Below, piece after piece: positions 45,009 to 64,000 of a stretch of DNA of 64,000 nt. The notes beneath the pieces are model-generated. The model had not been told where the DNA came from, made no database searches, and saw nothing but the letters and a program-made list of their open reading frames with translations. The number at the start of each line of letters is the position of its first letter. Positions within the stretch are counted from its first letter, which is position 1. Origin of the DNA: Bacteroidia bacterium (GTDB lineage Bacteria; Bacteroidota; Bacteroidia; 2-12-FULL-35-15); contig DASVUX010000011.1 in NCBI GenBank assembly GCA_036386835.1, forward strand, positions 192,291 through 256,290, given 5' to 3'. Made by a program: the position numbers and the translations under genes.

Positions 45009-45026
45009 TGAGTGGTTCCCTGGTTT

Positions 45027-45779
45027 TTAAACCATGTTCAATCTTTTTGACAGATCATCTTTATAAGAGCCCCCGATCGGGATCAGCTTTTTGTCTTCTT
45101 CAAGAATCAGGTTTGGCTGTTCGATCGCAACGATCTTATCGATGCGCACAATGAATGAACGGTGAACCCTGATGAAATCACTTGCAGGTAATTTCTTCTC
45201 TATATCCTTCATTGTAGAATGTATGGTGTAGCGCGCGCTTGCAGTATTGATCACGACATAATCCTTAAGCGCTTCCACAAAATAAATATCGCTTGTTTTC
45301 ACTTTTACAAGCCTTGAATTCGACTTAACAAAAATTATATCCTTCGATTCTTTATTTTCAACTATCGAATAAAGAAAATCGCGTTCCTTTTTAACATCCG
45401 TTTCTTTCTCATGCTTGTAGATCGCCATTTCAATAGATGTATGCAGATCGATCTCTTTAAAAGGCTTGATGATATATCCGTAGGGTTCTGAAACTTTTGC
45501 CTTGCTTAATGTGCTTTCATCAGCATATGCAGTAAGGTAAATCACAGGGATGTTGAATTTTTCACGGATCTGGCCTGCTGCTTCAATGCCGCTCATATCG
45601 CCTTTAAGCATGATGTCCATCAGGACAAGGTCCGGTTTAACTTCTTCCGCTGTACGGATAGCGTCTTCACCGGTAGAACACATTCCAACCACAGTATAAC
45701 CGAGTTTTTTCAAGCTGTGCTGAATGTCTTTTGCTACTATGCTTTCGTCTTCAACTATTAGAATATTTGTTTTTGACAT
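45027..45779 (-). CDS. LytTR-family two-component response regulator (LytR/AlgR type)
   Basis: Receiver domain NILIVEDE...DLVLMDIMLKGDMSG...IKPF, and a C-terminal LytTR DNA-binding domain (FVKSNSRLVKVKTSDIYFVEALKDYVVINT...FIRVHRSFIV). Confidence 0.85.
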   Translation of the reverse strand: MSKTNILIVEDESIVAKDIQHSLKKLGYTVVGMCSTGEDAIRTAEEVKPDLVLMDIMLKGDMSGIEAAGQIREKFNIPVIYLTAYADESTLSKAKVSEPYGYIIKPFKEIDLHTSIEMAIYKHEKETDVKKERDFLYSIVENKESKDIIFVKSNSRLVKVKTSDIYFVEALKDYVVINTASARYTIHSTMKDIEKKLPASDFIRVHRSFIVRIDKIVAIEQPNLILEEDKKLIPIGGSYKDDLSKRLNMV

Positions 45780-45782
45780 CTT

Positions 45783-48700: not shown

Positions 48701-50045
48701 CGGGGCGGAGTTCAAAACGATAAACTACATCAAGCGCATTCTCTGCAAGCATCCTGAATTTTTCTTCACTTTCCTTCAGCTGGCGCTCTGCATTTATCTG
48801 AGCGCTGACATCTCTCACCAGCCCGAAATTCCCAATGTGATTACCTGATGCGTCTATCTGGGGCGTGATCCTTTCTTCGATCCAGATGTATTCTTTTTTT
48901 GAACGGTGATAAAACCTGTAAACAAACTCCTGCGGCTTCCTTGTTCTCCTTAGGTCCTTCGCAACTTTTCTTATTTTATCTATATCATCCGGGTGGCATA
49001 ATGCTACAAGTGTATCCCCTGATTTCTCATATTCTTTAGGTGTTACATCAAGGATTTGTTTTATCTGCCTGCTGAGATACTTTACTCTTCTTTTCCCTTC
49101 CGGCAAAAACTCAATGTAATAAACCAGTTCCAAAATATTATTCAGGACCTGTGAAAGATCCTCGCGGCTTTGTTTTAAAATATCCTCATTCTTCTTCCGC
49201 TCTGTAACATCCCTTGTGATTCCTTCTATTGCGACCATCCTGCCTTTACTGTCGTGCACAGGTATGTTCACGCTTTCGATCCAAACCACTTTCTTATCTT
49301 TCCGGATACTTCTGAAAAGCACCGGGGGCAATACAGCTCCGCGCTTTGCCTTTGCGATCTTTGCATTGTTGGCATCAGCAATTACCCGGTCCTCCGGGTG
49401 AATTATCCTGGTGCCCAGCATCGGGTCCTTATAATATTCGCCCTGAGAATATCCCGTGATCTTTTTAACTGAGGGACTGATAAATTCACATGCAAAGTCC
49501 GGGTACACCCGGTAGCGGTAAATAATATCTGCTGCATTCTGTGCAAGCATCCTGAATTTTTCCTCGTTCTGTGAAAGCTTCTCCTTCGCCTCTACTTCTT
49601 TGGTTATATTGGTTGCTTCAACAATTACTGCAGCGATTTTTTTATTTTCATACAGCGGTGTTGCTTTACAGGAAAAAACAGCGGCCTTTCCGGAAACAGA
49701 GTACGCTCTGGTCATGTATTCCCTGGACTTCCCGGTTTTAAAAACGGAGGTGATGGCGTTGCGCACAAGAGCGCGCGATTCCGGGAACACAAGATCAAAA
49801 GCCTTTTTACCAAGCACATCACTTTTTTTCCGGCCCTTCCCGGTTTTATTGACATCAAGAATGTTTAGCTTATGATCAACAACAGCAACAGTATTACCGG
49901 AGTGCTTAAAAACGCTTAGCCAGGGAACTCCTGCAACCTTTTTTTTGGAAACGGTGGCCTTATCCCTGTTTTTTGAATCAAGCCTTCGCTGAAGCTTTTT
50001 GAGTTCGGCAATAAGCTCTGATTTGGTTTTAGAGGAGAGAGGCAT
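45783..50045 (-). CDS. cytoplasmic multi-PAS/PAC sensor histidine kinase with HisKA_2-type phospho-acceptor and HATPase domains (1420 aa)
   Basis: No TM segments. At least seven PAS/PAC-like modules (repeated ..GxxxWxxxVNTPVxxxxGKIIAIEGISRDITExK.. blocks). H-box EVHHRVKNNLQVISSILNLQ is characteristic of HisKA_2. The C-terminal ATP-binding G-boxes include DNGIGLP. The start is 3 bp after the MORN gene stop, and the stop is 3 bp before the LytTR regulator start. Confidence 0.85.
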   Translation of the reverse strand: MPLSSKTKSELIAELKKLQRRLDSKNRDKATVSKKKVAGVPWLSVFKHSGNTVAVVDHKLNILDVNKTGKGRKKSDVLGKKAFDLVFPESRALVRNAITSVFKTGKSREYMTRAYSVSGKAAVFSCKATPLYENKKIAAVIVEATNITKEVEAKEKLSQNEEKFRMLAQNAADIIYRYRVYPDFACEFISPSVKKITGYSQGEYYKDPMLGTRIIHPEDRVIADANNAKIAKAKRGAVLPPVLFRSIRKDKKVVWIESVNIPVHDSKGRMVAIEGITRDVTERKKNEDILKQSREDLSQVLNNILELVYYIEFLPEGKRRVKYLSRQIKQILDVTPKEYEKSGDTLVALCHPDDIDKIRKVAKDLRRTRKPQEFVYRFYHRSKKEYIWIEERITPQIDASGNHIGNFGLVRDVSAQINAERQLKESEEKFRMLAENALDVVYRFELRPAPRYGYVSPSIYNLTGYTPEDFYKDPNLGFKIIHPEDRHILGDSEKLIFENRPINNVREPNIKLRWIRKDGTAVWTETVNTPVRNSEGKIIAIEGISRDITQQKESEERFKILSNATFEGIVFSEHGRIIDANDQFLKMYGYNHVNEILGKDVVDDFVIPEQRSMAKKFSRLPKSEPFEVQTVRKDGAIMTVETKAQNIPYFGKTIKATVIYNITERKQYETSLRESERTLSTLMNNLPGMAYRCNFDGSWTMLFVSKGCAELTGYRPVDMIHNKKVAYNDLIMPEDRQKVRAKVASALERKKPYVLSYKIKTANDEVKWVWEKGEGVFSEDGDLLFLEGFIIDATDRQKFEVELKRSRENYKSLVDYSPDGVFIHINGKVVFANPSATRLVGIRDPEEALNYSLFDFLLPEYKPTILSRISKVIAGEPQEFTEIKIKTLSGEIREVETKPILIKFNGKDAVLTVVHDISTQKQLVKEQMRAQIAEETNELLEQEITKRKVIQLQLQESQKYTRLLIESSLDMICASDKDGFITEFNAAAQRTFGYSPEEVIGKHVSMLYEDPKQRVQITDEKLFKTGVYSGEVSNIRKNGERFTAFLSASVLRNEVGEIVGAMGVSRDISELKQAEEQLRGQSAKLNAVFESSSHVIWTLDTNLCLTSYNKNFAHFFKKHYNTEVFIGLNMAADEMLTSNDYNNFWVQKDKAALRGERQHFETKLVDRNGDVVWREIYLNPIFDENGNVREISGIGNDITEKKLAEEKIKQSLQEKEVLLKEVHHRVKNNLQVISSILNLQSSYVKDQGTLNILKESQNRIKSMAFIHESLYQTKDFSSINFSEYVVNLSHNLIQSYSNFDKEIKLSLDIQNVFLNLDLAIPCGLIINEIVSNALKYAFVDKKGEGEISVKMVLDKENLVLEVADNGIGLPKEIDYRNTQSLGLQLVVTLTDQLNGSIEMDSSNGTKYTIIFKQNQVKNRI

Positions 50046-50048
50046 ATT

Positions 50049-51602
50049 TTATTTGATGCTTGGCTCTGAGGTAGGCGTTTCGGGTGTTACTTTAACCCCG
50101 TCAAAACGGATTTCAATATCATTCTTAAAAAGTATTGTCAGGAAAAGGAAACCCGACTCATCATAAAACTTCCAATCCCCTTCTTTTAATCCGCCAACAT
50201 ACTTTCCTGTCTGCCTTTCTTTCCCGTTCGGATAGTAGAATGTCTGTAACCCGTCAGGAATGCCGTCAATGAACTTTCCTGAAAAGCGTAATTTCCCGGT
50301 TGAGGTGTAATAATGTTTCCACTCTCCATCGCGTCTGTCGGCCTTATAGCTGCCTTCTTCCCTGTAGTCAGGAGCTTCCAGCACCCAGGGCCCTTCTTTT
50401 AAACCATCAATGTATTCGCCCTTCGTGATTATTTTTGCACTGTCAGGACCAGCATCGCTGTATTCGGTCATCATGCCATCCTGGAGATCATTCCGGTAAT
50501 TCTCTTCCCTTAAGAGATTGCCGCTTTCATAGTACCACTTCCAGATTCCCTGGGCCTTGCCCTTTTTATCATATTTCCCTTTCTGCTCCACTTTACCGTT
50601 TGCATGATAGAAGACCCATTCGCCAATCCTTTTTCCGTTGAGATATTCGCCTTTTGATTTAACCTGACCGTTCGGGTGATACTCCACCCATGGCCCCTGC
50701 TGCCGGCCCGCTGTATCAAGGATTCCTTCACCGGTTAATACTCCTTCGGAATACATTTTAGCCCCAATCACTTTTCCTTCGGGAGAGAACTCCCGCTGTA
50801 TGCCTTCTGCCACACCATCCTTATACGTTGCAGTGAATTTAACCGATCCATTATCGTGATAGGTTGTTTTAACATCCAGCTTCGCCAGTTCGGGAGCATT
50901 CGTCTGAAGAACCCCGTTAATGTATTTGGTGGTATTTACAAGACTCCCTTTGGGTGAGTATTCTTTGAGATAACCGTTCATCTTGTCATCGGAGTAAGTC
51001 ACTTCCGTTTTGATCACACCTGTAGGATAGAAGGTTTTCCACATCCCCTGTTTCAGCCCGTTTGCATCCTTCCGGTTGATCTTTTCCTCTTTCTGCACAA
51101 AGCCCATTTTGTATTGGGTGATCGTTATAATGGTGCTGTCGGGCGCATACTCATATCCGGCCCCTTCCTCTTTACCCGCTACAAACGGAATCGTTTGCTT
51201 TACCTTTCCATCCTTATAATAATTCACCGTATTACCCTGCTTTACATCATTCTCGTAATTTTCTGCAGTGACTACAACCCCTTCTTTTGTATCATAGATT
51301 TTCTTAGGGCCATTCTTCTTTCCTTCCGTGTAATTGAATTCAAAAGCAAGTTTGCCCTGCTCATTGTAGAAACGCCAGGTACTATCGAGCATGAAATTCT
51401 TCCGGTTGCCTTCCGATTTAAGCTTCCCGGTTTGAGAATACGTTTTCCAATAGCCGTCCGGCTTACCGTCTTTCATCGGGCCTTCGCTGGAAACTACCCC
51501 ATTATCATAATAGAATTTATTATAGCCGTTGGGATTGGTTGGTACCTGTGCGTATAAACACACAGGTAAAAACAATAAGAGCAGTCTGAATATGCTTTTC
51601 AT
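50049..51602 (-). CDS. secreted MORN-repeat protein (YwqK-like repeat family)
   Basis: Signal peptide MKSIFRLLLLFLPVCLYAQ. More than 15 degenerate ~23-aa repeats of the form G.W..YY.NG.L...G.Y..G...G.W. Confidence 0.7.
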   Translation of the reverse strand: MKSIFRLLLLFLPVCLYAQVPTNPNGYNKFYYDNGVVSSEGPMKDGKPDGYWKTYSQTGKLKSEGNRKNFMLDSTWRFYNEQGKLAFEFNYTEGKKNGPKKIYDTKEGVVVTAENYENDVKQGNTVNYYKDGKVKQTIPFVAGKEEGAGYEYAPDSTIITITQYKMGFVQKEEKINRKDANGLKQGMWKTFYPTGVIKTEVTYSDDKMNGYLKEYSPKGSLVNTTKYINGVLQTNAPELAKLDVKTTYHDNGSVKFTATYKDGVAEGIQREFSPEGKVIGAKMYSEGVLTGEGILDTAGRQQGPWVEYHPNGQVKSKGEYLNGKRIGEWVFYHANGKVEQKGKYDKKGKAQGIWKWYYESGNLLREENYRNDLQDGMMTEYSDAGPDSAKIITKGEYIDGLKEGPWVLEAPDYREEGSYKADRRDGEWKHYYTSTGKLRFSGKFIDGIPDGLQTFYYPNGKERQTGKYVGGLKEGDWKFYDESGFLFLTILFKNDIEIRFDGVKVTPETPTSEPSIK

Positions 51603-51758
51603 AATTTATCTTCTATACAAATTTAATCAAAAATGCAGCGGTTTCAAAACAGAAGAAGCTCCTCATCTGATTTTTCCTGCTTTTTTAACGTCTTTTGCAA
51701 TGTCATTAATTTCAGGTCTTTCAGAATAATGTTATACTTTTATAAAAAACAACGTACC

Positions 51759-52865
51759 ATGTTACGATTAAAATTTTTAGTGCCGGGGTTATTATGTTCG
51801 GGGCTATGTGCAGCCCAGATCACCATTACCGCTGCTGACATTGCGAATGCCGGGGATACATTACGTGTTAGCACCCTGTCCACAACCCAGGGAATTAACC
51901 ATACTTTAACCGGGCCGGGATATACATGGGATTTTTCAAGCCTTCAACCTGATATGCAGCGATTTGAAAAATTTGACGCACCATCCGCCTTTCCCTCTCC
52001 GTACAACCTTCTTTTTAATCCCGCGAATACTTCTTATGGTAAAGTGAATTATCAGAACATAGGTTCTGTTTTTCCGGGATTCAGCATTGATGCGGATTAC
52101 GATTTTTTCAAGGAAACAGCTGTCATGCTGCGCCAGAACGGTATTGGCTATGTGCTGAACGGCATACCGGTGCCAATGAATTACTCCATGCCTGATACCA
52201 TTTATGAATTTCCTGTTGAGTTCGGGGATACAACGAGCGGAGATTATAAATTTTCAACCCCTTCGTTTGCAGCCATTCCGTTCTATTATGGTGAAGTAGG
52301 CCACCGTGAAAGTGTTGTGGATGGATGGGGAGATCTCATTACTCCTTTCGGCACATTCCCTTCTTTGAGGGTCCGTGCTGTGATCACCGCTACAGATTCT
52401 CTTTACATCGATACTCTTGGTTTCGGTGTTTCGATCCCACGGCCTCCAAGGTTTGAATACAAATGGCTTGCAGCAGGATCAAAGGTGCCGCTGTTACAGG
52501 TGGATGCAACAGATGCGGGAGGGTCTGAAATTGTAACAGGTGTGTTTTACCGTGACAGCGTGCGGAATGTGCCACAGGTAGGCATCCAGGAAATTTACAC
52601 GATGAGCGGTTTTTCTGTTTCCCCGAACCCCTGCTCTGAGACAGCTGTTATAAATTATAGTTTAAACGGTTACGCTAAAGTAAAGATCAGCATCTCTAAT
52701 ACCCTCGGCCAGGTTGTTTCCGTTATCTCGGATGAAAAGCTGCAAGCAGGGAAACAAGCTCTGACAATAGATGTTAAGTCGCTGGGACTTGAAAGTGGGA
52801 TTTATTTTGTGACGCTGGAAAGCGGGAATAAAAGGGACGTAAAGAGGCTGGTGGTTGGGAAGTAA
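51759..52865 (+). CDS. secreted protein with type-A T9SS C-terminal sorting domain; N-terminal domain of unknown function
   Basis: The start is refined to MLRLKFLVPGLLCSGLCAAQ (ATG at 51759). The longer ORF from 51633 has no signal peptide. The C-terminal ~85 aa SGFSVSPNPCSETAVINYSLNGYAKVKISISNTLGQVVSVISDEKLQAGKQALTIDVKSLGLESGIYFVTLESGNKRDVKRLVVGK fits Por_Secre_tail. Confidence 0.65.
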   Translation: MLRLKFLVPGLLCSGLCAAQITITAADIANAGDTLRVSTLSTTQGINHTLTGPGYTWDFSSLQPDMQRFEKFDAPSAFPSPYNLLFNPANTSYGKVNYQNIGSVFPGFSIDADYDFFKETAVMLRQNGIGYVLNGIPVPMNYSMPDTIYEFPVEFGDTTSGDYKFSTPSFAAIPFYYGEVGHRESVVDGWGDLITPFGTFPSLRVRAVITATDSLYIDTLGFGVSIPRPPRFEYKWLAAGSKVPLLQVDATDAGGSEIVTGVFYRDSVRNVPQVGIQEIYTMSGFSVSPNPCSETAVINYSLNGYAKVKISISNTLGQVVSVISDEKLQAGKQALTIDVKSLGLESGIYFVTLESGNKRDVKRLVVGK

Positions 52866-53190
52866 CGTGTCATTTCGAACGGAACAACGTGAAAGAGAAA
52901 TCTCATTATAAAAGATTTCTCCTTATAGTCGAAATGACAAATAAGCAACGGGTTAACCTCTGCTCATATTATCACCTTGGAGAGATTCCGTCTCGCAGCA
53001 CGGAATGACGATCATACTGCATCCTGTCTGTCATTTCGAACGGAACAACGTGAAGAGAGAAATCTCATTATAAAAGATTTCTCCTTATAGTCGAAATGAC
53101 AAATAAGCAACCGGTTTACTCTGCTCATATTATCACCTTGGAGAGATTCTGCCTGCAATACAGAATGTGCGGTCTGCGCAAACAGCTTAT
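52866..53190. repeat. tandem duplication of a ~161-bp structured intergenic element (two copies, each with nested hairpins)
   Basis: Copy 1 is about 52869-53029 and copy 2 about 53030-53190; the first ~135 nt are near-identical. Each copy holds an outer 10-bp stem gtcatttcga...tcgaaatgac that encloses an inner 9-bp hairpin gagaaatct-cattataaa-agatttctc. Each also has a 3-prime hairpin whose sequence differs between copies but keeps pairing (attccgt..acggaat versus attctg..cagaat). Confidence 0.6.
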
Positions 53191-55172
53191 TTACTGCCTT
53201 CTGAAAATGTGGAGATCGCAATGATCTGGATCTTTCTTTCAAGTGCGGCTGCAGGGCTGTAAACAGAATTCTTGGTATCATAATAATCATCACTCACATT
53301 CGGCCTGGCTTTTAATTCCCCGATCTGCTCATCGATAAAAGTTATACTGCCCTCATTAGAATTTTGATTATCCAAATACTTTACGAACACTCCATTCTGG
53401 TATTCCATGAAATAATTGCGAAGGCTCGAAATCCTTCTTTTTGCAAGATTAACGTTGTAATCGGTTGATGCCAGCGGGCTGCAGAACCCCTTCATTGTTA
53501 TGGTCACTTTTTCCTTATCCTTTAATACTTTCAGCATCAGCTGCGCGAATTTATCAAGGTCCTGCATACCTGCATCCACGCTGTCGTCAAAGAGATTATC
53601 AATATCGCTGTATGCCCTTTCAATATTCTCCGCGGCAGCACCTTTAGAATATTCCTTTTTATACTGCTCCCGCATAGCGGAATAATCTTCATACGTCTTC
53701 TTATAGTTCTTTGTTGTTGTTGTAGCAAGCGTTTTCTTGTCAGGCTCATCATTGTGAAAATACAATGTAAGTGGCACAAGCAGCTTCATCTGCGTTACAA
53801 AGATCTTTGTACTGTCAACAACCACAGGCGGTTCATCTATCCGCGGGATCTTAAATGTGTAAATGTCATTGCAGCAGCTTTCTTTTTCCTCAAAATAGGA
53901 CCCGATTCGGTTAGACGATAAAAATGCTGCTGTTTTCTGAGAATTTATACTGAAATAAATATCGTTATAACTGGTATTGATGGGTGAACCAAGGTTCTTT
54001 ACATCAGAAAATTCTTTGTCCTTAAATTCGCTTCTGAAAATATCAAAAGCCCCCAGTCCTTTATGCCATGTGGAGGAGAAAAATAGCTCCTGGCAGGGTT
54101 TGCAATAAAACGGTGTGATCTCATCTTCAATAGAGTTTATCTTCTTCCCTGCATTTACCGCCTTATCAAAAGTCCCGTCCTTATTTATTCTGCTGTACCA
54201 TATATCCATCTGGCCTTCACCACCGGGCCGGTTGGAAGAAAAAAACAAGACTTCCTGTTCACCTAGAAAGCCAACCGCAGGCTGCGTGTTATTTGTTCCC
54301 TTTTTATTGATCTCTTCGGGAAGCAGCTGCAATGGGGACCAGTGGCCATCTTTAAAATCTGAAGAATAGATCTCACAATTAAACGACTGTCCGTCTTTCT
54401 GAACGCAGCGGGTTATATAAACTTTTGTAAAATCATTATTGAATGCAGTATTCGCGTTGTGGATCCCGTTCTTGTTAAACAGTGAATCCAGCTCCTCTGC
54501 TTTCTGCCATCTGATGCTGTCCTTCTTTGAAGTATAGATCTTATTATAACTTACATTATTCTTCTTGTCGTGGTCTTTTTTATCCCGTAATGAAGAGAAA
54601 TATAAAACACTGTCCACCTGGATGGGCGCATATTCAGATACTTTGCTGTTCACTGCACTGTCAAGATGGATCACATTTACCGACTTGTCAGCCCCGGCCA
54701 TCAGCAGCTGTGCATAGTCACAGGCAGCAACTTCCTGGATCGCCTTTTTAACGTAATAGCTGTCCTTTTTCTTTTTATTTTTCTTAGCATATTTATCGAA
54801 CATCTTTTTGGCATCCTTGTATTTCCCTTTATTCTTCCTGATCATTGCAAGCCAGAAGGAGCATTCAGGATACAGCTTGCCCTGGGAATCTTTTTTAAAA
54901 ACTTTTGAATACCAGTGGTCGGCAATATCGTAATCATAGTTCAACCGGCTGGCTTCAGCATATTTATACTGGATCGCCATATCGCTGGAGTCCTGGTTAA
55001 TTGCCTGGTTATAATAAATCGCTGCCGAGAAAAAATCATTGTCCGCAAAAGCTTTATCGCCATCTTCAATTAGCTGTTTCAGCTTCTGGGCTTGAAGGGG
55101 AGATGATAGATAGGAGATATTAGATATTAGAACGGCAATAAGAACAAAGAGAACTCTTGAGTATTGCCTCAT
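53187..55172 (-). CDS. OmpA-family protein with N-terminal TPR-like repeats and a TolB/WD40-like beta-propeller (PorE-like architecture)
   Basis: The start is refined to MRQYSRVLFVLIAVLISNISYLSSPLQAQ (ATG at 55172), which avoids the overlap with porP. A TPR-like N-terminus, TolB-like repeats (FSSNRPGGEGQMDIWYS), and a C-terminal OmpA_C motif TDYNVNLAKRRISSLRNYF. Confidence 0.7.
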   Translation of the reverse strand: MRQYSRVLFVLIAVLISNISYLSSPLQAQKLKQLIEDGDKAFADNDFFSAAIYYNQAINQDSSDMAIQYKYAEASRLNYDYDIADHWYSKVFKKDSQGKLYPECSFWLAMIRKNKGKYKDAKKMFDKYAKKNKKKKDSYYVKKAIQEVAACDYAQLLMAGADKSVNVIHLDSAVNSKVSEYAPIQVDSVLYFSSLRDKKDHDKKNNVSYNKIYTSKKDSIRWQKAEELDSLFNKNGIHNANTAFNNDFTKVYITRCVQKDGQSFNCEIYSSDFKDGHWSPLQLLPEEINKKGTNNTQPAVGFLGEQEVLFFSSNRPGGEGQMDIWYSRINKDGTFDKAVNAGKKINSIEDEITPFYCKPCQELFFSSTWHKGLGAFDIFRSEFKDKEFSDVKNLGSPINTSYNDIYFSINSQKTAAFLSSNRIGSYFEEKESCCNDIYTFKIPRIDEPPVVVDSTKIFVTQMKLLVPLTLYFHNDEPDKKTLATTTTKNYKKTYEDYSAMREQYKKEYSKGAAAENIERAYSDIDNLFDDSVDAGMQDLDKFAQLMLKVLKDKEKVTITMKGFCSPLASTDYNVNLAKRRISSLRNYFMEYQNGVFVKYLDNQNSNEGSITFIDEQIGELKARPNVSDDYYDTKNSVYSPAAALERKIQIIAISTFSEGSK

Positions 55173-55336
55173 AAATCCATCGCACATACGTGGACTCTGT
55201 TCAGCATAACCATTATTTACTGCAGCAGGTAATGAAGAGATTGCTTCGTTAGTGCCTCGCTCCTTCGGTCGCCATAGGCTTGCTGCAGACGATGCGCAAT
55301 GACGTTCCGTATCAATGATCCTGGTCTCCGGCATAC

Positions 55337-56353
55337 TTACATATAAATTGGACAAACGCGTTTTTTGGCAACGAAAGGAACGATCTTCTTAAAAATATAA
55401 ATGACGGAGATCTCGAATCCACCTCTGCGGTTTGTTGCTTCGATAAGCTTTGAAGTATTCACATCATAGCTGATCCCGACATTAAAATTCCGGTAATCAA
55501 CGTTGGCTGCTAAAATGAAAGCATCCTTAACACGGTAGAAAGCACCAAGAGACACGGCTGTTTCCAATCCATTCACTCCTTTCAGGTGATATTTACCAAA
55601 CAACCCCAAAAGTGTTTCCTGGAATTTGCCCTGGCGTTGGTACATAAAGCTCGGCAAGATATCAAGTTTCGCAGCCACCGGGATCTGTCCGAGGCCGCTT
55701 ACTGTTGTCTTTATATCCAGGCGGATATCATCATCGTTAAAGAAGGATTGCTTCGGCCTGTTAAGATGGAATGCGGACACACCGAAATTAACTTTGGTGC
55801 GGTTGGTTTTGCGCCAGTAATAAACGAAACCAGCTCCCATGTCAAAATATGTAATGCGTGTCCTGGAGAAGTTCTCACCGCTTGCGAGCGATGCGTTGTA
55901 CTGATCACCGTCATACTGGTTGTCGAATGTAAGGGCATTCACATTAAAACTTTTTGTGGTGATCCCCGGTTGGATAGCAACAGAGAGGAAGTGAGCTGAA
56001 TCTTTCGTAAGCTTTTTGATATATGATCCTGAAAGCAGGACCTGGGTTGTTCCGAAACGTGAATCACCTGATTTGTCATTGTTTATCTGCAGACCAACAC
56101 CGGGAACATCATTTTCAAGCCTGGTTTTTAAACGGGTATCGCCTGCAAGCGAAAAGGTTTTGTAAGGCACCGGGATTGCAGACCACTGGCTCCGGTAATT
56201 CCCGGCAAAGCGCCAGTCGCCATCAAACAAACCGGTTTGGGCAGGATTTAAATTCTGGGGAGAAGCGTTGAACTGGGAATAATGAATGTCCTGTGCATAG
56301 GAAGACCCTATACACAAAAACAGGAAAAATAATATGAGATTATTTTTATTCAT
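55337..56353 (-). CDS. PorP/SprF-family type IX secretion system outer-membrane protein
   Basis: Signal peptide, then the family-typical N-terminus QDIHYSQFNASPQNLNPAQTG. A ~300-aa predicted beta-barrel ending in an aromatic residue. It lies directly after a type-B CTD cargo gene (start codon abuts that gene's stop). Confidence 0.8.
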   Translation of the reverse strand: MNKNNLILFFLFLCIGSSYAQDIHYSQFNASPQNLNPAQTGLFDGDWRFAGNYRSQWSAIPVPYKTFSLAGDTRLKTRLENDVPGVGLQINNDKSGDSRFGTTQVLLSGSYIKKLTKDSAHFLSVAIQPGITTKSFNVNALTFDNQYDGDQYNASLASGENFSRTRITYFDMGAGFVYYWRKTNRTKVNFGVSAFHLNRPKQSFFNDDDIRLDIKTTVSGLGQIPVAAKLDILPSFMYQRQGKFQETLLGLFGKYHLKGVNGLETAVSLGAFYRVKDAFILAANVDYRNFNVGISYDVNTSKLIEATNRRGGFEISVIYIFKKIVPFVAKKRVCPIYM

Positions 56354-59300
56354 CTATCGTATCAATGTTGTATTTCCTTTTTTCCTAAGCTCATCCCCGT
56401 TATAGCATTTTCCTCTTAAATACCATGCAAACACTGCAGGGTCAGCCTTCATGCCGTTATAAAAACCATCCCATCCTTTTGTAATATCATTTGTTTCAAA
56501 CACCATTTGCCCCCAGCGGTTATAAACAGCAAAATACACTTCCGTTATATCATTGCTTCTTACATAAAGAATATCATTCTCACCATCCATGTTCGGAGTG
56601 AATGTATTCGGAACAAAAACATTATCGGCCTTGCACTGCATTGATACCACATAAATAGTTACGGATGCAGTCCTTGGGCAGCCTGTAGAATCAAGGATTG
56701 AAACGGTATATGTGGTTGTTTCAGTTGGAGAAACTTCCGGGTGAAAGCCATGTATATTGCTGACGCCCGTGACCGGAAACCATGTGACGGTAAGGTTCGT
56801 ATCCGTTATTGCATGGATTACAGTGGCGGTGCCTTCAGGAATTGTATCCGAATTTGCAGTTGCCGACAGCGGGTATATATTCGGATCGATCACATACACG
56901 GTTGTGGACTGTGTTTGCAGGCAAGTGTCACCCAGTGAATTTATCGTGCTGATAGTTGCGGTATAGGTTGTTGTAACAGCAGGATTTGCAACCGGGTTTG
57001 CGATTACAGAAGATGAAAGTGATGCAGAAGGAGACCAGCTGTAAGCAAATCCTCCTGTTGCCAGGAGCTGGGTCCCGTTCTTTTCTATACATATTGTGTC
57101 ATCCGGGCTGATGGTTGTGGTAGCACCGTTATAACTTACCTGGACGGTTGTGGTATCACTGCAGCCATTGATGGTACTTGTTACAAGCTCCACATCATAG
57201 CTTCCTGCTGCGGCAAAAAGATGTGTCGGGTTCTGAAGGGTGGATGTTCCCCCGTCATCAAAATCCCACTCCCACGATACAGGCGCTACGGCAGAAGAAT
57301 CGTAGAATGAAAACAGATCGGTGCAGGGCAATGCCGCAAAATCAAAGTCGGCATTTATCCCGGGAAATACGGTGATTGATAATGAAACGGTATCCCATGT
57401 CGAACAGCTTGCGGTATCTTTAGAATATAACTGAACGACATAATTCCCGGAAGGAGTGAATGTCTGTGAAGGATTAAAAACAGTCGAGGTTGTGTTTCCA
57501 TTTCCAAAATTCCAAAGATAAACGGACGAAGATGGATTTTCGTTTGTGAATTGTATTGTTAGAGGATCGCAGCCGCTGGTGACAGGGGATGAGAATTGTG
57601 TTGTATCTGCCTTTAAATACACGGTTGTGGTTAGTACCAGCGGACAGGTATCATTAGATGAATTAACCGTTTGGATGGTTACGGTATAAGTAGTTGCCGT
57701 ATCCGGACTTGCAACCGGGTTAGCGATATTCGGATTATTCAATGATCCCGCGGGACTCCAGCTATAAGCAAAACCACCGCCTGCATTCAGCTGTATCGAG
57801 GTTCCGGTACAGATCGTGTCAGCCGGGGTAACGGAAACCGGTGGCGGCCCGACAAGATTCACCGGGATGCTTATGGTGTCGGCACATCCATTAACTGTTT
57901 GTGTGATCAGCTGAACATTATACACCCCTGCTGAATCGTACAGATGTGAAGGATTTTGAATGGAAGCTGAATCACTATCGCCAAAATTCCATTCCCAGGA
58001 AACCGGTGCAGAAAATGAAGAATCATTAAAGTTTACCTGGTTGGTACATTGCAATGAGGCGTAATTAAAGCTGGCTGTGATTCCCGGGTAAACGGTTACA
58101 TACTGAAATGCGGTATCATATATATTGCAGCTGCCGGGCTTGTTCACGATCAGTTGTACCATGTAGGTACCTGCATCCGGAAATGTATGAACAGGGTTAA
58201 GAACACTTGATGTTGTATCACCTCCGCCAAAATCCCAGAGAAATGTCCCGCCTGTACCGCTTTGATTCTGGAACTCCACAGTGAGGGGGGCACATCCATC
58301 GATATGATCAACAGTGAAATTTGCCTGTGCCAAAGGAACCTGGAAGTCAAGCCTGAAAACCCCGTTATTACAATTGTTGTTTTGGGTGTTATGGTTTGGA
58401 TTTCCGGGCGTTCCCGGCCATGCGCCCGGTGTTACGGGAAAATCATCATAACCTCCGCAGCCTGCGCATACAGACTGATAAACAATTCCCTTTTTATCAA
58501 AACGGCTGGTGCCCCCATCCACATGCTCCCTGCTTTGTCCCCCACCGAAATATGAACCATATAATAAACTGGAAGCATTGGTAGAAAGAACCAGTAAATA
58601 AAAATTGAATCCATCAGTAGACGGTTGAATGGCATTGGGTGTAATCGGCATTCCGCCTGTTAAACTTCCTGTTAAAATATTTCCACCCCAGCCGGAAACG
58701 TAAATATTTTCGCAATAATCCACAAGAAATGCTGAAGGGGAAATAGTCGGGAATGGGGTTCCGTTGCCAAAAACCGTTGAAAATATAACTGTATTCAGTG
58801 AGTCATTTATTTTGGTGATGAACTGTCCGCTGCCGGGGTTGTTGTAGGTTCCCGGGGTCACCGGCATCGACCCCCTTGTTTGTCCCACCACATATACATC
58901 ACCATCCTTGTCAAGCTGTACAAAATATGTCTGGTCATATTGGGCTGTCCCCCAATAAGTAGAAGCGATCATTGCACTGCCGTCCCCTTTGATCCTTGTG
59001 ATGAACCCATCTGCCTGTCCCCCTGAATACGAGGGCCTGAGCACACCTGGAGTTGTGGAAAAATCAAGGCTCCGTGTTCCTCCCGCAACACATACATTGG
59101 AAGAGTCGTCTATGGCAATGGCATAACCGGCATCATTGTCTGATCCGCCAAGGAATGTGCTCCAGAGCAACTGGGACAGATCAGGATTCAGTTTCATGAC
59201 TACTGCGTCCTGCTTGCCGCCAAGTGTGTTATCAATGCTGTTCACCATTGGAAAATCGCTTGACCTGGTTGAGCTGTTAATATATACATTGCCATATTGA

Positions 59301-60685
59301 TCCACGTTGATCTCCCCGCGGTATTGATCCCCGTAATTGTATTGCAGGGAATCATATTGTGATTCATACACCGGCATGCTTTGGCCGGCAACAGGATCAA
59401 AGAAATTGTTTATGAACACACTGTCATTATTGTAATTTGTCCCGTCATTCAGGCTTCCCCCGATATATGTTGAACCAAGTAATGACGTTCCGGCTGAGTT
59501 GAACTTAGCGAGGTAGATATCTGTTCCTCCATAGAAGTATGTCCCGTTGTTATAGAAGTACATGGCTATCCCTCCGTTGAAGGTCGCATCATACGCGTTA
59601 GCACTAACGGGAAAATCCGTTGAGCCCGTTGCACCGTAAAGGAACAATTCATCCTGTGCATTTACTACAAGACTTGTAACCACCTCTGTTCCGGTAAAAC
59701 CTCCGAGATAAGTTGAATACTGAAGAAATGCACCGGAGGAATCATACTTTGTAATTACAACATCCGTTCTTCCGTAAATATATGTGCTGGAACCGTTCCA
59801 GCTTGGATCAAATGCACCTACTGTAGTTGGATATCCCACTCCATAAGCAATTCCCCCGGAGTAAAGGTTCCCATCCGAATCATAAGTGGCAGTCATACCA
59901 AAATTATCCGCAATAGAACCCGAAGATGCTGCAAAAACTAAAACAGGATCAATAATTAACTCTTTGGTTTTATCATATCCGCGGGGAAATTTAAAATGAA
60001 CGATGTTATCCTTCAGAACGAATTTACAAGGCACCTCAACTTCTTTCCCGTCTATTACCTGGTATGCATAAGGCTCCTGCTCCACCATCTCGTTAAGGCT
60101 TGTCTTTAACACAAGGGATCCGTTTTTCAGGCTGATGTTATCAAGGCCTTCGTATAATAAGCGGATCTCGTTGGGATCACCGTTCGGGGCGACAATAAAA
60201 TTATATTTAATGTTATTTTCTTTTCCCAGGACCTGCAGCCCGATTCCTTTATAGAGTTCTTGATAATTTACTTCCTTAAAATTCCTTACTGCGGATGACC
60301 ATTTTGATTTGTCATTGCCCATAAAGAAATTACAATAATCCGGTGTCGGGGCAGTGGATGAATGCGTGACTGCGGATGAAGAGTTAAGGAACGTCATCCG
60401 GAAAGCATGCGTGGCAATGTTTATTGAATTGCCTTTTCCTCCGACATGATTTTTTCTCAGGGTTTCCTTATCATAGAAATTATAGGTAAAGCAGTTTTTT
60501 TCCAGGAAGAGTGCACCGCCATCCAGATGTGCACGATATAACACATTCCTTTCCCACTGGTTTTTATTTTCTGTAAACTTTATTCCTGCCTGGGATTTTT
60601 TAGGCGTACGGATATCGCCTGCAAAAAGAATTGCCGGACTAAGGAAGAAAAACAGCAGAAGATATTTTTTTATGCTTGCTATCAA
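56354..60685 (-). CDS. large secreted SBBP-repeat beta-propeller / PKD-domain protein with type-B T9SS C-terminal domain (1443 aa)
   Basis: Signal peptide MIASIKKYLLLFFFLSPAILFAG. SBBP-like repeats (LGGSDNDAGYAIAIDDSSNVCVAGGTRSLDFSTTPG and similar). Several PKD modules (FLWDFGGGDTTSS, WEWNFGDSDSAS, YLWNFGNGNTTST, WEWDFDDGGTST). Type-B CTD VFVPNTFTPNMDGENDILYV...YNRWGQMVFETND..GWDGF. Confidence 0.8.
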   Translation of the reverse strand: MIASIKKYLLLFFFLSPAILFAGDIRTPKKSQAGIKFTENKNQWERNVLYRAHLDGGALFLEKNCFTYNFYDKETLRKNHVGGKGNSINIATHAFRMTFLNSSSAVTHSSTAPTPDYCNFFMGNDKSKWSSAVRNFKEVNYQELYKGIGLQVLGKENNIKYNFIVAPNGDPNEIRLLYEGLDNISLKNGSLVLKTSLNEMVEQEPYAYQVIDGKEVEVPCKFVLKDNIVHFKFPRGYDKTKELIIDPVLVFAASSGSIADNFGMTATYDSDGNLYSGGIAYGVGYPTTVGAFDPSWNGSSTYIYGRTDVVITKYDSSGAFLQYSTYLGGFTGTEVVTSLVVNAQDELFLYGATGSTDFPVSANAYDATFNGGIAMYFYNNGTYFYGGTDIYLAKFNSAGTSLLGSTYIGGSLNDGTNYNNDSVFINNFFDPVAGQSMPVYESQYDSLQYNYGDQYRGEINVDQYGNVYINSSTRSSDFPMVNSIDNTLGGKQDAVVMKLNPDLSQLLWSTFLGGSDNDAGYAIAIDDSSNVCVAGGTRSLDFSTTPGVLRPSYSGGQADGFITRIKGDGSAMIASTYWGTAQYDQTYFVQLDKDGDVYVVGQTRGSMPVTPGTYNNPGSGQFITKINDSLNTVIFSTVFGNGTPFPTISPSAFLVDYCENIYVSGWGGNILTGSLTGGMPITPNAIQPSTDGFNFYLLVLSTNASSLLYGSYFGGGQSREHVDGGTSRFDKKGIVYQSVCAGCGGYDDFPVTPGAWPGTPGNPNHNTQNNNCNNGVFRLDFQVPLAQANFTVDHIDGCAPLTVEFQNQSGTGGTFLWDFGGGDTTSSVLNPVHTFPDAGTYMVQLIVNKPGSCNIYDTAFQYVTVYPGITASFNYASLQCTNQVNFNDSSFSAPVSWEWNFGDSDSASIQNPSHLYDSAGVYNVQLITQTVNGCADTISIPVNLVGPPPVSVTPADTICTGTSIQLNAGGGFAYSWSPAGSLNNPNIANPVASPDTATTYTVTIQTVNSSNDTCPLVLTTTVYLKADTTQFSSPVTSGCDPLTIQFTNENPSSSVYLWNFGNGNTTSTVFNPSQTFTPSGNYVVQLYSKDTASCSTWDTVSLSITVFPGINADFDFAALPCTDLFSFYDSSAVAPVSWEWDFDDGGTSTLQNPTHLFAAAGSYDVELVTSTINGCSDTTTVQVSYNGATTTISPDDTICIEKNGTQLLATGGFAYSWSPSASLSSSVIANPVANPAVTTTYTATISTINSLGDTCLQTQSTTVYVIDPNIYPLSATANSDTIPEGTATVIHAITDTNLTVTWFPVTGVSNIHGFHPEVSPTETTTYTVSILDSTGCPRTASVTIYVVSMQCKADNVFVPNTFTPNMDGENDILYVRSNDITEVYFAVYNRWGQMVFETNDITKGWDGFYNGMKADPAVFAWYLRGKCYNGDELRKKGNTTLIR

Positions 60686-60907
60686 GTGTTCCGTTGATGA
60701 ATCTATTCAAAAATAAGCAAAATGTCATTCATTTGCTTTGCTGTCTGCCACCAATAAGTAATATTCGCTTCCCAAGCCTGTTTTTAAGACCATTATTTTA
60801 CTGTTCGGGTTGCATCTGTGCTGAAATTTCCCTCATTAAGAATTCCCTGCATTTAACGGCAGCAACTAAACTAATTAATTAAAGTAAAACTAATGGTGCG
60901 CAGTAAT

Positions 60908-63900
60908 TTATTGTATCAGCGTTACATGCCCGATCTTTGATTTTATCTCATCTCCGGAACATTTTGTTTTGTACTTGACTTTCCATACATATACATCAGG
61001 TTTGGTAAGGCTGCCTTTATAAAAACCGTCCCAGCCTTCGTTCTGCTTTTCAGTTTCATAAATCAATTCTCCCCAGCGGTTAAAGATCATCAGATCAAAA
61101 TAGGTGATGTCCGCGCCTTTGCCTGTGAATATGTCATTTAGACCATTTTCATTCGGGGTAAATGAATTCGGGAACCATAATACACCATTACCTAAACCGC
61201 CTTCGATGTTAATCGTGTCGCTCACATAACAACCCGAGGAATTCGCAACAACCCAATATACACCGGCTTCAAGCACCTCAATAGAAGGTGTGATCTCACC
61301 GGTTGACCACAAATAGCTGCTTGCCTGCACACCTGATTCAAGAGTATATCTCTCAACGTTACAAAGCGTTGTGCTGCTTGTCCACGCCACAGGAGGTATG
61401 GCATTTATCAAAGTTGTATCCGATACACTGCAATGCATATTGGATGCAACAACTATGTGTGGTCCTCCTGCTGAGGTTGTGATTGTCTGTGTCTGATCGC
61501 CTGTAGACCAGGAATAAGCTAAAGCTGTGTTGCCGGCATCCAGTGTAACGGATGTTTGCGGACACAGATCGATTGATGAAGGAAGGTTTACCACGGGATA
61601 AGGAACGTAGCTGATATTGACAGTGTCCTTATTCTGGCAGAATCCGACAACAGCTGTTACCCAATACTGGCCCGCTGTTGAAACATTAATGACAGGTGAT
61701 GATGCACCCGTTGACCATAAATAGGTGGCACCGGGGGTGGTCGCATCGAGCGTGATCGCCTGTCCGGCACATAAGGTAGTATCAGGAACCAGCGGAATAA
61801 AATAAACTTCAAAAAGCACAGTGCTCGCAGTGCTGCTGCAGTGCTGATTCGAGGCAGTAACTATGTAGTTCCCTGTTGAGGAAGCATAAATATCCTCCAG
61901 AGTATCTCCTGTTGACCAGATATACTCTTCAGCTGATCCTCCCGGCTGAAGGAGTGCGGAATCTCCGGGGCAAATGGTAATGGCTGGAATGAGGCTTATT
62001 ACAGGATAATCAATGTATCCAATGCTGATCGTATCATTCCGTGTACAGCCGGCAAAGGACAGGCTTACCCAGTATTCCCCGGCCGCTGAGACACTAATTG
62101 AATTGGTAACCGCTCCTGTTGACCACAGGTAAGAAGCTCCCGGATAACTGATATCCAATGTGATCGTTTGCCCCGCACACAGGTTTGTATCAGGCCCCAA
62201 TACAGGAAAAACAAGTTCATAGGTGTTTGTGGCGGCTGTTGTGCTGCATTGAAAATTAGACGCTGTTACGGAATACGTGCCGCTCTCTGAAACAATAATA
62301 TTCTGCGTGGTGTCTGCAGTTGACCATAGGTAAGCTGTTGCCGGAATTCCCCCATTCAGCACCAGCGAGTCATCCGGGCAGATGATTGTTGAGGCGGGCA
62401 GGGTGATCACGGGATAAGGAATATAATTTACGATAATTGTATCTGAACGTGTGCAGGGGCCGAGTGTCACCTGCACCCAGTATTGCCCTGCTGTTGTAAC
62501 TGTGATAGAGGGAGTAACCGCGCCTGTTGACCACAGATAACTTAACCCGGGTTCAAAAACATTCAGCTGTAGGGTTTGCCCGTCACAAAGGGAAGTGTCA
62601 TTTCCCAGGAACGGCTCCAGTATGATCTCCGCGATCTGCAGCGTGTCAGCGGTTGAACAATGATTGTTGCTTACTTCCACCCAGAATTCCCCGGGGCTTG
62701 TAGCAGTGATTGTTTGTGTAGAATCCCCCGAAGACCAGTAATAACCGATGCCCGGCTGGCTGCCGGCATCCAGGAGAAGATTGACGGATTCACAAAGTAT
62801 GGTGTCGTTGCCCAGGCTGACTAGCGGGTATGGCGCAACTACAACTGTAAGATCGGAGGTGTCAGCGAAAAGGCATCCCGTGGAATCAATCGCTATGAGC
62901 CTCACATCATAAGTGCCGGGCAGAGGATACTGATGGGTTGGAGAGGATTGTGTACTGATGGGGCTGCCGTCTCCGAAATCCCACAAATAATTCAATGCAT
63001 TTGCACTCGCATTATTAAAATGCACAGAGTCGCCTGCACAAATAGTGTCGTTCGGAAAAATGTTTGCATCCGCGCTTACCCCGGCTGTCTGGAAATCGAA
63101 TTTAAATACCCCCATGTTGCAGTTGAACGACTTATTAATTCCGGATGAAGGCACTCCCGGAGTTAAAGGAGTATAAGTTGGCGATCCATAAGGCCATGAG
63201 CCGGGTGTAACCGGAAAGTCGTCATTCCCCCCACAACCGGCACAAACGGCCTGGTAAACAATTCCTTTCTTGTCGAAGCGGCTTGTGCCCCCGTCAACAT
63301 GCTCCTGTGTTTGTCCGCCACCAAAATAGGTACCATACAATAATGAAGTTGCGTCTGGCGCCAGGACAAAAAGATAAAAATTAAAACCATCGGTAGCCGG
63401 CTGAAACGCGCCCGGAGTCAGTGGCATATTGGTGGTTGGGGTGCCAAGAAGAATATTGCCTCCCCAGCCGCAGACGTAAATATTTCCGCACACATCCACC
63501 AGAAAGGCTGCCGGGGAAATATTTACCTGTCCGTTTCCATTACCGAAAATTGTGGTGAAAAGCGTTGATGTGAGGGTGCTGTTCATTTTCCAGATGAACT
63601 GTTTACTGTTCGGATTTGAATAGACACCAGCTGAAACCGGCATGCTGCCAAGGGATTGCCCGATAATGTAAACGTTAAAAAAATTATCGAGCTGGATGAG
63701 GAAACTCTGGTCGTATGCATTCGTCCCTATCAGCGTGGAATTGAGAATAGCCGCTCCATCATTGCTGATCTTGGTGACATAGCCATCCGATTGACCACCA
63801 TTATAGAGCGTCCCGATAGCACCTGGTGTTGTCGGGAAATTAACTGAGTTCGTACCACCTGTAGTATAAACGTTGGATTGCGGATCAAGTACAAGGGCAT

Positions 63901-64000
63901 AACAACCATCATCCAGTGAGCCTCCAAGATAAGTGCTCCAGGTCATAGCGCTGAGATCTGGCGGCATTTTGAAAACAACTCCGTCCATGCCACCTCCCGG
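60908..64000 (-). CDS. large secreted SBBP-repeat protein with type-B T9SS C-terminal domain, paralog of the 1443-aa gene; N-terminus lies beyond the window end
   Basis: Type-B CTD LWFPNSFTPNENGLNDIFTG...IFNRWGELIYETE..GWDGF. The N-terminal part is about 80 percent identical by eye to the neighbouring gene (DGFNFYLFVLAPDATSLLYGTYFGGGQTQEHVDGGTSRFDKKGIVYQAVCAGCGG). ~85-aa modules LWSTGxxTxxIxV..AGxYWV...C.R.DTI.I repeat five times. The ORF is still open at position 64000. Confidence 0.75.
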   Translation of the reverse strand, partial: PGGGMDGVVFKMPPDLSAMTWSTYLGGSLDDGCYALVLDPQSNVYTTGGTNSVNFPTTPGAIGTLYNGGQSDGYVTKISNDGAAILNSTLIGTNAYDQSFLIQLDNFFNVYIIGQSLGSMPVSAGVYSNPNSKQFIWKMNSTLTSTLFTTIFGNGNGQVNISPAAFLVDVCGNIYVCGWGGNILLGTPTTNMPLTPGAFQPATDGFNFYLFVLAPDATSLLYGTYFGGGQTQEHVDGGTSRFDKKGIVYQAVCAGCGGNDDFPVTPGSWPYGSPTYTPLTPGVPSSGINKSFNCNMGVFKFDFQTAGVSADANIFPNDTICAGDSVHFNNASANALNYLWDFGDGSPISTQSSPTHQYPLPGTYDVRLIAIDSTGCLFADTSDLTVVVAPYPLVSLGNDTILCESVNLLLDAGSQPGIGYYWSSGDSTQTITATSPGEFWVEVSNNHCSTADTLQIAEIILEPFLGNDTSLCDGQTLQLNVFEPGLSYLWSTGAVTPSITVTTAGQYWVQVTLGPCTRSDTIIVNYIPYPVITLPASTIICPDDSLVLNGGIPATAYLWSTADTTQNIIVSESGTYSVTASNFQCSTTAATNTYELVFPVLGPDTNLCAGQTITLDISYPGASYLWSTGAVTNSISVSAAGEYWVSLSFAGCTRNDTISIGYIDYPVISLIPAITICPGDSALLQPGGSAEEYIWSTGDTLEDIYASSTGNYIVTASNQHCSSTASTVLFEVYFIPLVPDTTLCAGQAITLDATTPGATYLWSTGASSPVINVSTAGQYWVTAVVGFCQNKDTVNISYVPYPVVNLPSSIDLCPQTSVTLDAGNTALAYSWSTGDQTQTITTSAGGPHIVVASNMHCSVSDTTLINAIPPVAWTSSTTLCNVERYTLESGVQASSYLWSTGEITPSIEVLEAGVYWVVANSSGCYVSDTINIEGGLGNGVLWFPNSFTPNENGLNDIFTGKGADITYFDLMIFNRWGELIYETEKQNEGWDGFYKGSLTKPDVYVWKVKYKTKCSGDEIKSKIGHVTLIQ

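Follow-up and report, generated by a model that had tools for sequence, protein, structure and literature searches.

What becomes of a very large surface protein once it has been secreted, and which partner then holds it, is the question raised by four genes at the right end of a 64-kb window of DNA from an uncultured freshwater Bacteroidia lineage (the window being the whole stretch analysed here). All four are encoded on the minus strand and, going from right to left, they are cargo A, cargo B, a PorP/SprF-family gene and a gene for a PorE-like periplasmic protein. Both cargo proteins end in a C-terminal domain (CTD) of type B from the T9SS, the type IX secretion system. A sequence-only reading of this DNA had called the locus sprB-like, with one PorP apparently serving two near-identical cargo paralogs. 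Our analysis leads to a different description. The locus is an ordinary instance of the known Bacteroidota anchoring operon of type-B cargo, PorP-like and PorE-like proteins, with an extra cargo paralog upstream. We consider it likely that the region encodes a module of T9SS type-B cargo, PorP-like shuttle and PorE-like tether that belongs to the static-anchor class.

Cargo B (56354-60685) is a type-B T9SS cargo of 1443 residues with a TTG start. Cargo A (60908-64000) is present as the C-terminal 1031 codons of a 1494-residue protein, its open reading frame (ORF) remaining open to the window edge. The complete gene lies at 962-5446 of locus L001, which shows no mismatches to the window over 18.6 kb; the window thus matches contig Ga0334953_000015 of JGI metagenome 3300034031, or a sequence identical to it. 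We judged domains against curated hidden Markov model cutoffs of 35 bits for TIGR04131, 27 bits for CHU_C (PF13585) and 20.5 bits for SBBP (PF06739). The CTD of cargo A, at approximately 60911-61174, scores 54.9 bits with TIGR04131 and 52.4 bits with CHU_C; that of cargo B, at approximately 56357-56617, scores 40.9 and 48.7 bits. Both genes encode what had been proposed for them, paralogs whose type-B CTDs exceed the 35-bit cutoff. The proteins begin with Sec signal peptides, read by eye, cargo A starting MTRLQTKYLLLLLLFTRMVSVHA and cargo B starting (M)IASIKKYLLLFFFLSPAILFA.

The heads of the two proteins share a DUF7948 and propeller region. DUF7948 (PF25778) matches cargo B with 243 bits and appears on full-length cargo A in the precomputed Pfam list. 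SBBP scores 32.1 bits in cargo A, and its match in cargo B, at 18.2 bits, falls under the cutoff. The stalks differ: cargo B carries four PKD domains (PKD_4 138 bits), while cargo A has a single PKD domain (PKD_4 69.5 bits) and, where cargo B has its four, eight tandem repeats of about 68 residues. These repeats, encoded within 60908-62750 on the minus strand (residues ~400-930 of the partial protein), have the signature Y-x-W-S-T-G ... G-x-Y-x-V ... C ... D-T and no Pfam match; at the DNA level they leave only a 408-nucleotide (nt) periodicity with 64-79% identity. A PDB sequence search with the cargo head (residues 1-795 of cargo B) returned no match, and no papers turned up when the literature was searched for SBBP in combination with type IX secretion.

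The gene directly downstream of cargo B, at 55337-56353, encodes a 338-residue PorP/SprF-family protein with a signal peptide, the presumptive shuttle and anchor. It scores 195 bits with TIGR03519 (cutoff 90.55), with residues 3-321 aligned to positions 2-292 of the 292-position model, and 142.5 bits with PF11751 over its full length (cutoff 22.3). Its ATG at 56353 follows immediately on the stop codon of cargo B (56354-56356), confirming the abutting start that had been noticed earlier.

To what extent is this gene order conserved? A PorP protein scan, with one genome per species, yielded 80 loci, all from metagenome-assembled genomes of uncultured Bacteroidota, at 86-41% identity, and 359 PorP relatives were confirmed in genome contigs. 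Related loci were annotated by BLAST against the window proteins, and those whose PorP is at least 60% identical served as the comparison set. The placement of PorP directly after a cargo stop is kept in 44 of 44 close loci and in 21 more distant ones. In each of the 44, the cargo that touches PorP carries a B-type CTD, 61-100% identical to that of cargo B and 37-48% identical to that of cargo A. On this basis, the pairing of cargo B with the adjacent PorP as its cognate partner is well supported, and the general rule that type-B cargo is usually followed by a cognate porP/sprF-like gene holds here as it does in published work (PMC12618676, PMC9143113). A PorE-like gene comes directly after PorP in 34 of 41 loci.

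The array can also grow at its upstream end. In the comparison set, a second cargo stands upstream of PorP in 11 loci (five A-type, six B-type) and a third in four, all of them A-type. Among the 37 related loci whose upstream sequence extends for 9 kb or more, 12 have several cargo genes ahead of a single PorP, and in six of these two are B-type. Such arrays are therefore a common arrangement in this lineage. A-type cargo, when present, forms the 5′ end of the array; this occurs in a minority of loci, and A-type cargo adjoins PorP in none of the 44. Its CTD is a separate conserved class, with 53-74% identity among A orthologs and 33-48% to B-type CTDs. A-type cargo sits directly 5′ of B-type cargo in nine loci selected through PorP and likewise in locus L086. 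In this metagenome contig (4799-5618), the cargo with the B-type CTD, 71% identical to the CTD of cargo B, has behind it 517 nt in which no PorP fragment is detectable, in contrast to the 44 genome loci, where PorP comes next without a gap.

The last gene of the series, at 53187-55172, encodes a PorE-like periplasmic protein of 661 residues when read from the ATG at 55172. This start is conserved (M1 is kept in the orthologs) and opens a Sec signal peptide, MRQYSRVLFVLIAVLISNISYLSSPLQAQ, with no lipobox cysteine. The start at 55355, from which the OmpA-like ORF had earlier been read, is not borne out: the TTG-started, 722-residue ORF is an over-extension that lacks a signal peptide, its extra codons are probably untranslated, and the orthologs begin at the methionine of 55172. 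With the start at 55172, PorP and the PorE-like gene are separated by about 165 nt and have no overlap.

This protein is homologous to PorE across the first two thirds of its length. The CHU_0125 family of OmpA-like outer membrane integrity proteins (NF053607) is the best-scoring curated model, at 195.5 bits, and the PorE model (NF052230) reaches 176.9 bits, both over residues 26-445, the TPR and propeller region, with E values of about 1e-52 to 1e-57. All 16 diverse orthologs match the PorE model at E ~1e-52 or better (best 1.2e-54). A profile built from these orthologs finds TPR proteins in the PDB with an E value of 4.5e-13, and Pal-type OmpA_C domains only weakly; the single sequence finds just two weak TPR-like matches, above E 0.05. 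In Pfam, OmpA is matched by nine of the 16 orthologs, PD40 by seven and SPOR by four. The protein would comprise, in order, TPR, a PD40/TolB-type propeller, a linker and a divergent OmpA_C-like end: the TPR is clear, the propeller region aligns to the PorE model, the OmpA_C match is sub-threshold, and no CRD was detected. Neither the single sequence nor the ortholog profile hit the solved PorE OmpA_C domain in the PDB searches. An AlphaFold2 prediction made with 26 close homologs gave a poor model (mean pLDDT 56, pTM 0.38). The assignments of type-B cargo, PorP/SprF and PorE-like architecture are upheld by these scores and domain matches, with one qualification: for the PorE architecture, the TPR and propeller homology stands, and the OmpA_C domain is a weak match below the cutoff.

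Several features of this gene weigh against a role as a wall-bound tether. The PorE score is far under the cutoff of 600 for that family. Pfam OmpA reaches 22.3 bits against a cutoff of 27.2. PorE binds peptidoglycan through D576, N584 and R591 (PMC12773672); by motif spacing, S565, N573 and R580 take their places in this protein, with the serine invariant in the 16 diverse and 26 close orthologs. Because the aspartate of the triad is replaced, wall binding by this protein is not assured. Unlike PorE of Porphyromonas gingivalis, the protein has no lipobox. Finally, seven of the 41 related loci do without the gene. In gliding Bacteroidota, several PorE homologs that are not lipoproteins occur side by side, and most of the homologs in gliding species are of this kind; it is the propeller domain of PorE that is implicated in binding PorP (PMC12773672). 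By its sequence, then, the protein is PorE-like in architecture, lies outside the PorE equivalog family and has an altered version of the predicted wall-binding site.

Could it nevertheless be the core T9SS PorE of this organism, needed for secretion generally rather than for a particular cargo? The shared domain order and the significant match to NF052230 (E 6e-52) would agree with this. However, the match lies far below the family cutoff and the CHU_0125 model does slightly better, the lipobox and the triad aspartate are both gone, and the existence of several non-lipoprotein PorE homologs in gliding species (PMC12773672) offers the protein another place. Its absence from seven of 41 loci and the lineage-dependent variation of its C-terminal additions, SPOR or DUF1573, also sit poorly with a core component. 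We therefore regard this identity as improbable and retain the cargo-linked PorE-like protein as our reading.

The C-terminal additions are of interest in their own right. Many PorE-like orthologs carry an extra C-terminal SPOR domain, which is peptidoglycan-binding (for example P0043, P0056, P0057, P0076 and P0079, and those of loci L025, L034 and L044). In some distant orthologs, DUF1573/HYDIN-type Ig domains replace SPOR, and all have serine for the triad aspartate. The loss of the aspartate together with the gain of SPOR in some lineages hints at alternative ways in which the PorE-like paralog may grip the wall.

How does the locus compare with systems whose function is known? Its closest likeness, in gene order and domains, is to the Fjoh_3952/3951/3950 operon of Flavobacterium johnsoniae: type-B cargo, PorP/SprF directly downstream, then a PorE-like gene. 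F. johnsoniae has five or six such operons of type-B cargo, SprF-like and PorE-like genes. For operons of the Fjoh_3952 type, the published model pictures a static, wall-bound complex; Fjoh_3952 itself is static and needs Fjoh_3951 (PMC9143113, PMC12618676). The locus described here differs in three respects: the cargo head consists of DUF7948 and an SBBP propeller, two cargo paralogs of different CTD classes precede the one shuttle, and the OmpA_C triad of the PorE-like protein is degenerate, with serine for aspartate. A second likeness is to PG1035-PorP-PorE of P. gingivalis, in which PorP holds a type-B cargo and binds PorE, a protein of TPR, propeller, CRD and OmpA_C domains that in turn binds peptidoglycan. 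There, PorP and PorE are single-copy core parts of the T9SS, and PorE, a lipoprotein, has the triad D/N/R; in the present locus, the proteins are cargo-linked paralogs, and the PorE-like protein is a non-lipoprotein with an S/N/R triad. The CHU_0125 family provides a third comparison, although the score lies far under its equivalog cutoff of 620 and the C-terminal third of our protein is left unaligned.

The sequence-only reading had instead placed the locus with SprB, the gliding adhesin of F. johnsoniae. If this were right, the cargo would be propelled along the cell surface as part of a mobile gliding system. Like SprB, the cargo here has a type-B CTD, and SprB needs a PorP/SprF-family protein encoded immediately downstream, as in sprB-sprF. 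The resemblance goes no further. SprB, a mobile adhesin, is built of SprB repeats, and a PorE-like gene is missing from its operon; in our locus the reverse is found. SprB repeats (PF13573) are absent from cargo A and cargo B, with matches in the window only in the genes at 34980-38828 and 6626-12232, so that the name sprB-like is a misnomer. The dynamic cargo of F. johnsoniae (SprB, Fjoh_4750, Fjoh_1123) do not share an operon with a PorE-like gene (PMC9143113, PMC12618676). The presence of such a gene after PorP therefore puts the locus in the static-anchor class rather than in the mobile SprB/SprF class, and we think there is little chance that the cargo is a moving adhesin.

From these comparisons, we can propose how the static module would work. 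Secretion, shuttle pairing, contact between PorP and the PorE-like protein, and wall anchoring are all argued by analogy with the work in F. johnsoniae and P. gingivalis. Cargo B would be exported by Sec, and the T9SS translocon would recognise its type-B CTD. The protein would then be passed to the PorP/SprF-family outer-membrane protein encoded directly downstream, its cognate shuttle and anchor. The PorE-like protein would probably bind PorP through its TPR and propeller part and probably use its divergent OmpA_C-like end to fasten the complex to peptidoglycan. The outcome would be a large, adhesin-like propeller head fixed immobile at the cell surface. Cargo A, an old paralog at the 5′ end of the array, may be a second client of the same PorP or the client of an unlinked shuttle.

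The sequence-only reading had called the tandem genes near-identical, with about 80% identity over some 100 residues, and had warned of a recombination and assembly hazard. The local identity is real: it reaches 82-88% in 50-residue windows, between residues 673-748 of cargo A and 696-770 of cargo B. It is also exceptional. Overall, the two proteins are 35% identical over 1078 residues; their N-terminal ~760 residues, comprising DUF7948 and the propeller, range from 50 to 88% identity, and their C-terminal halves, which are built differently, from 20 to 40%. The DNA tells the same story. Even in the best-conserved stretch, nucleotide identity is 70-73%, third codon positions are 36% identical, and 59-65% of the identical residues are encoded by different codons. 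The longest DNA repeat shared by the genes measures 152 nt at 78% identity. Gene conversion as the source of the ~80% stretch is ruled out because synonymous sites are saturated there. This pattern is that expected of purifying selection on an old duplicate, as read from the sequences, and not of a recent duplication or of gene conversion.

The same data dispose of the idea that assembly collapsed or falsely duplicated a repeat to give the two SBBP genes, or that they stem from a recent, recombination-prone duplication. All that speaks for such an artefact is the tandem arrangement and one locally high stretch of amino acid identity. Besides the DNA divergence, the C-terminal halves are built on different plans, cargo B with four PKD domains and cargo A with eight YxWSTG repeats, the arrangement is 100% identical in five separately assembled contigs from different samples (a JGI sample, three SRA runs and ENA), and the order of A then B recurs in other species (L006, L007, L024 and L040). 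As far as sequence can tell, we consider an artefact to be practically out of the question, and the assembly hazard, along with the description of the paralogs as near-identical, can be set aside. Domain identities, gene order, the conservation of that order and the age of the duplication were demonstrated by our analysis.

Whether one PorP serves both cargo proteins is a more difficult matter. The claim that it does is overstated as it had been put: in 44 loci only cargo with a B-type CTD adjoin PorP, and cargo A belongs to a different CTD class. Over their last 100 residues, A and B share 42% identity. In F. johnsoniae, one shuttle is common to three orphan cargo proteins with CTDs above 44% identity, and a pair at 68% identity cross-talks, but the CTD of Fjoh_3952 is not handled by the shuttle of a 43%-identical cargo (PMC12618676). 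An identity of 42% therefore lies in the range in which shuttle sharing is unpredictable. Both the low identity and the Fjoh_3952 precedent count against sharing, as does the finding of cargo with A-like CTDs (~50% identical) in loci L091 and L107 with no PorP within 10 kb downstream.

The alternative is that cargo A bypasses the adjacent PorP altogether and is in functional terms an orphan, served by an unlinked PorP/SprF paralog, so that only cargo B pairs locally. The coherence of the A-type CTD as a class of its own and its failure to touch PorP in any of the 44 loci point in this direction, together with the precedents just given. So may the spacer between the genes (60686-60907, minus strand), which is 222 nt here as against 40-54 nt in related genomes. 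At 60715-60708 on the minus strand, 23 nt upstream of the TTG start of cargo B, it contains TATTTTTG, which resembles the Bacteroidota -7 promoter motif. A hand scan for TAnnTTTG found this one site in the spacer, compared with a window-wide frequency of 0.4 per kb, or about 0.09 expected per 222 nt. The site is a weak hint, from sequence, that B may have a promoter of its own. Scans for sigma-70 promoters and intrinsic terminators showed no excess over shuffled sequence, using a tool that does not cover Bacteroidota promoters, and the terminator scan found no terminator-like site in the spacer.

Against this alternative, A-type cargo always lies immediately 5′ of the B-type cargo/PorP array, at the tight spacing of 40-54 nt in relatives, and the F. 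johnsoniae orphans that share one shuttle are only slightly more than 44% identical (PMC12618676). The independent evidence of L086 agrees. We scanned metagenomes with an alignment of A-type CTDs and recovered at least 600 stretches, mostly generic type-B CTDs; among the matches listed, only L086, L087 and, more weakly, L088-L091 resemble the A-type. L086, the best match listed and found through its A-type CTD with no reference to PorP, again has an A-type cargo followed directly by a B-type cargo. Most type-B cargo in the metagenome sample have no adjoining PorP, a figure that reflects short contigs and the limited reach of a PorP model built from this lineage. Thus, the conserved synteny and tight spacing in relatives favour sharing, and the separate CTD class, the longer spacer with its -7-like motif and the A-like orphans elsewhere favour an unlinked shuttle. 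To our minds, sharing of PorP by cargo A and cargo B has an even chance of being true; service by an unlinked shuttle is a serious contender whose probability we place slightly below one half.

Cargo without a neighbouring PorP is also found within the window. Three minus-strand genes at 30552-39881 carry type-B CTDs: T1 (30552-34868; TIGR04131 44.2 bits) and T2 (34980-38828; 45.7 bits, with a PF13573 match) are large cargo with signal peptides similar to those of A and B, and T3 (38889-39881; 41.8 bits) is a 330-residue protein with PKD and type-B CTD. Across A, B, T1, T2 and T3, CHU_C scores range from 48.7 to 76.9 bits, always in the last ~90 residues. We confirmed that no porP adjoins the trio. 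Indeed, the gene at 55337-56353 is the sole PorP/SprF gene among the larger ORFs (at least 110 residues) of the window that were scanned. Two ORFs considered as hidden PorP genes proved to be otherwise, a 305-residue ORF at 28148-29065 being a YfcH-type epimerase and a 330-residue ORF at 221-1213 a NuoG-like subunit. The neighbours of T1 and T2 are a MarR regulator, small ORFs with no family match and the YfcH epimerase.

Orphan type-B cargo is not surprising, as it is already documented in F. johnsoniae, where orphans make up three of 12 type-B cargo and are served by the orphan shuttle Fjoh_1677 (PMC9143113, PMC12618676). Fjoh_1677 sets a precedent on two counts, for type-B cargo that lacks an adjacent porP, as T1 and T2 do, and for one shuttle with several cargo. 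The earlier description of all three genes as orphan cargo stands as far as the missing porP is concerned; it does not fit T3, which is a sigma-paired membrane protein rather than ordinary cargo.

The partner of T3 is a gene for a sigma factor of the extracytoplasmic function (ECF) group (39885-40415, minus strand; TIGR02937 97.7 bits against a cutoff of 42.9, with Sigma70_r2 and r4_2). T3 starts 3 nt after the sigma stop codon, and the gap is 3-5 nt in the window and in loci L166, L167 and L168. T3 consists of a conserved, hydrophilic N-terminal module of ~45 residues, one transmembrane segment at residues ~50-70 by hydropathy, a hypervariable linker, a PKD domain and the type-B CTD. With its hydrophobic segment placed at residues 50-70, it does not qualify as having an N-terminal signal peptide. 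All of the orthologous loci examined keep the sigma-T3 pair: L027 (20050-21014), L096 (1158-2809, minus strand) and L166, L167 and L168 (all at ~8465-10026). The pair in L096 is distant, with a sigma factor 42% identical and a T3 partner 24% identical. L166-L168 were fetched through T3 homologs of 49-57% identity. In the window, T1 and T2 lie downstream of sigma-T3; orthologous loci carry no CHU_C genes or two at this place, the numbers of downstream type-B CTD genes in L166, L167 and L168 being zero, two and two. The N-terminal module of T3 forms 94 clusters at 50% identity and is always N-terminal; CHU_C is likewise the last domain in seven of the 10 distant members that were sampled.

This topology, together with the linkage to a sigma gene, suggests for T3 the role of an anti-sigma-like partner, with a periplasmic end that looks like a type-B substrate of the T9SS, a suggestion built on gene order and topology only. 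Pfam and NCBIfam matches of T3 include no anti-sigma family. When the literature was searched for anti-sigma factors that carry a T9SS CTD, no such protein turned up, and only the paper on PorA and SigP emerged as a conceptual neighbour. In P. gingivalis, PorA, a T9SS CTD protein, feeds an ECF sigma pathway through PorXY-SigP (PMC7712824). T3 resembles PorA in being a T9SS CTD protein linked to an ECF sigma pathway. However, PorA is a secreted surface protein with a type-A CTD that acts through a two-component system, whereas T3 is membrane-anchored and has a type-B CTD, its gene starting 3 nt behind that of the sigma factor. A bolder proposal is that T3 is not cargo but a membrane-anchored, anti-sigma-like protein, and that engagement of its periplasmic PKD-CTD end, borne on a long flexible linker, by the T9SS or a PorP-like protein would let secretion control the release of the sigma factor and the expression of the downstream type-B cargo. 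We put this forward tentatively, as a possibility with the balance of probability clearly against it.

The sigma-T3 pair belongs to a larger syntenic block shared with L166-L168, which comprises a MORN-repeat protein, a giant multi-PAS HWE/HisKA_2 histidine kinase, a LytTR response regulator, RNase R, the ECF sigma factor and T3. In the window, 42936-51602 (minus strand) and 40533-42932 (plus strand) belong to this block, which, compared with L166-L168, carries an extra inserted pair of a CHASE3 histidine kinase and a receiver protein (42936-44809). Elsewhere in the window, the left end holds a segment of the nuo (NADH dehydrogenase) operon, from nuoA to a nuoG-like gene (221-6394, minus strand), as housekeeping context. 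T9SS sorting domains occur in nine genes of the window, the five type-B CTD genes described above and four with type-A CTDs (Por_Secre_tail) at 6626-12232, 12396-19412 and 21146-22327, all on the minus strand, and 51633-52865 on the plus strand. Two of these four encode giant proteins of 1868 and 2338 residues, with matches to SprB repeat, Ig_7 and Sortilin-Vps10.

What, then, does this locus mean for the T9SS? It adds one instance, from an uncultured freshwater Bacteroidia lineage, of an anchoring operon already described in F. johnsoniae. What decides the specificity of a shuttle for its CTD is a question left by the 2025 study of that organism, and the arrays of this lineage, with one PorP, one to three cargo proteins and two CTD classes, form a comparative set with which to approach it. 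If our proposal for T3 were true, the sigma-T3 pair would link T9SS activity to transcription, and it would then matter more than the locus that first drew attention.

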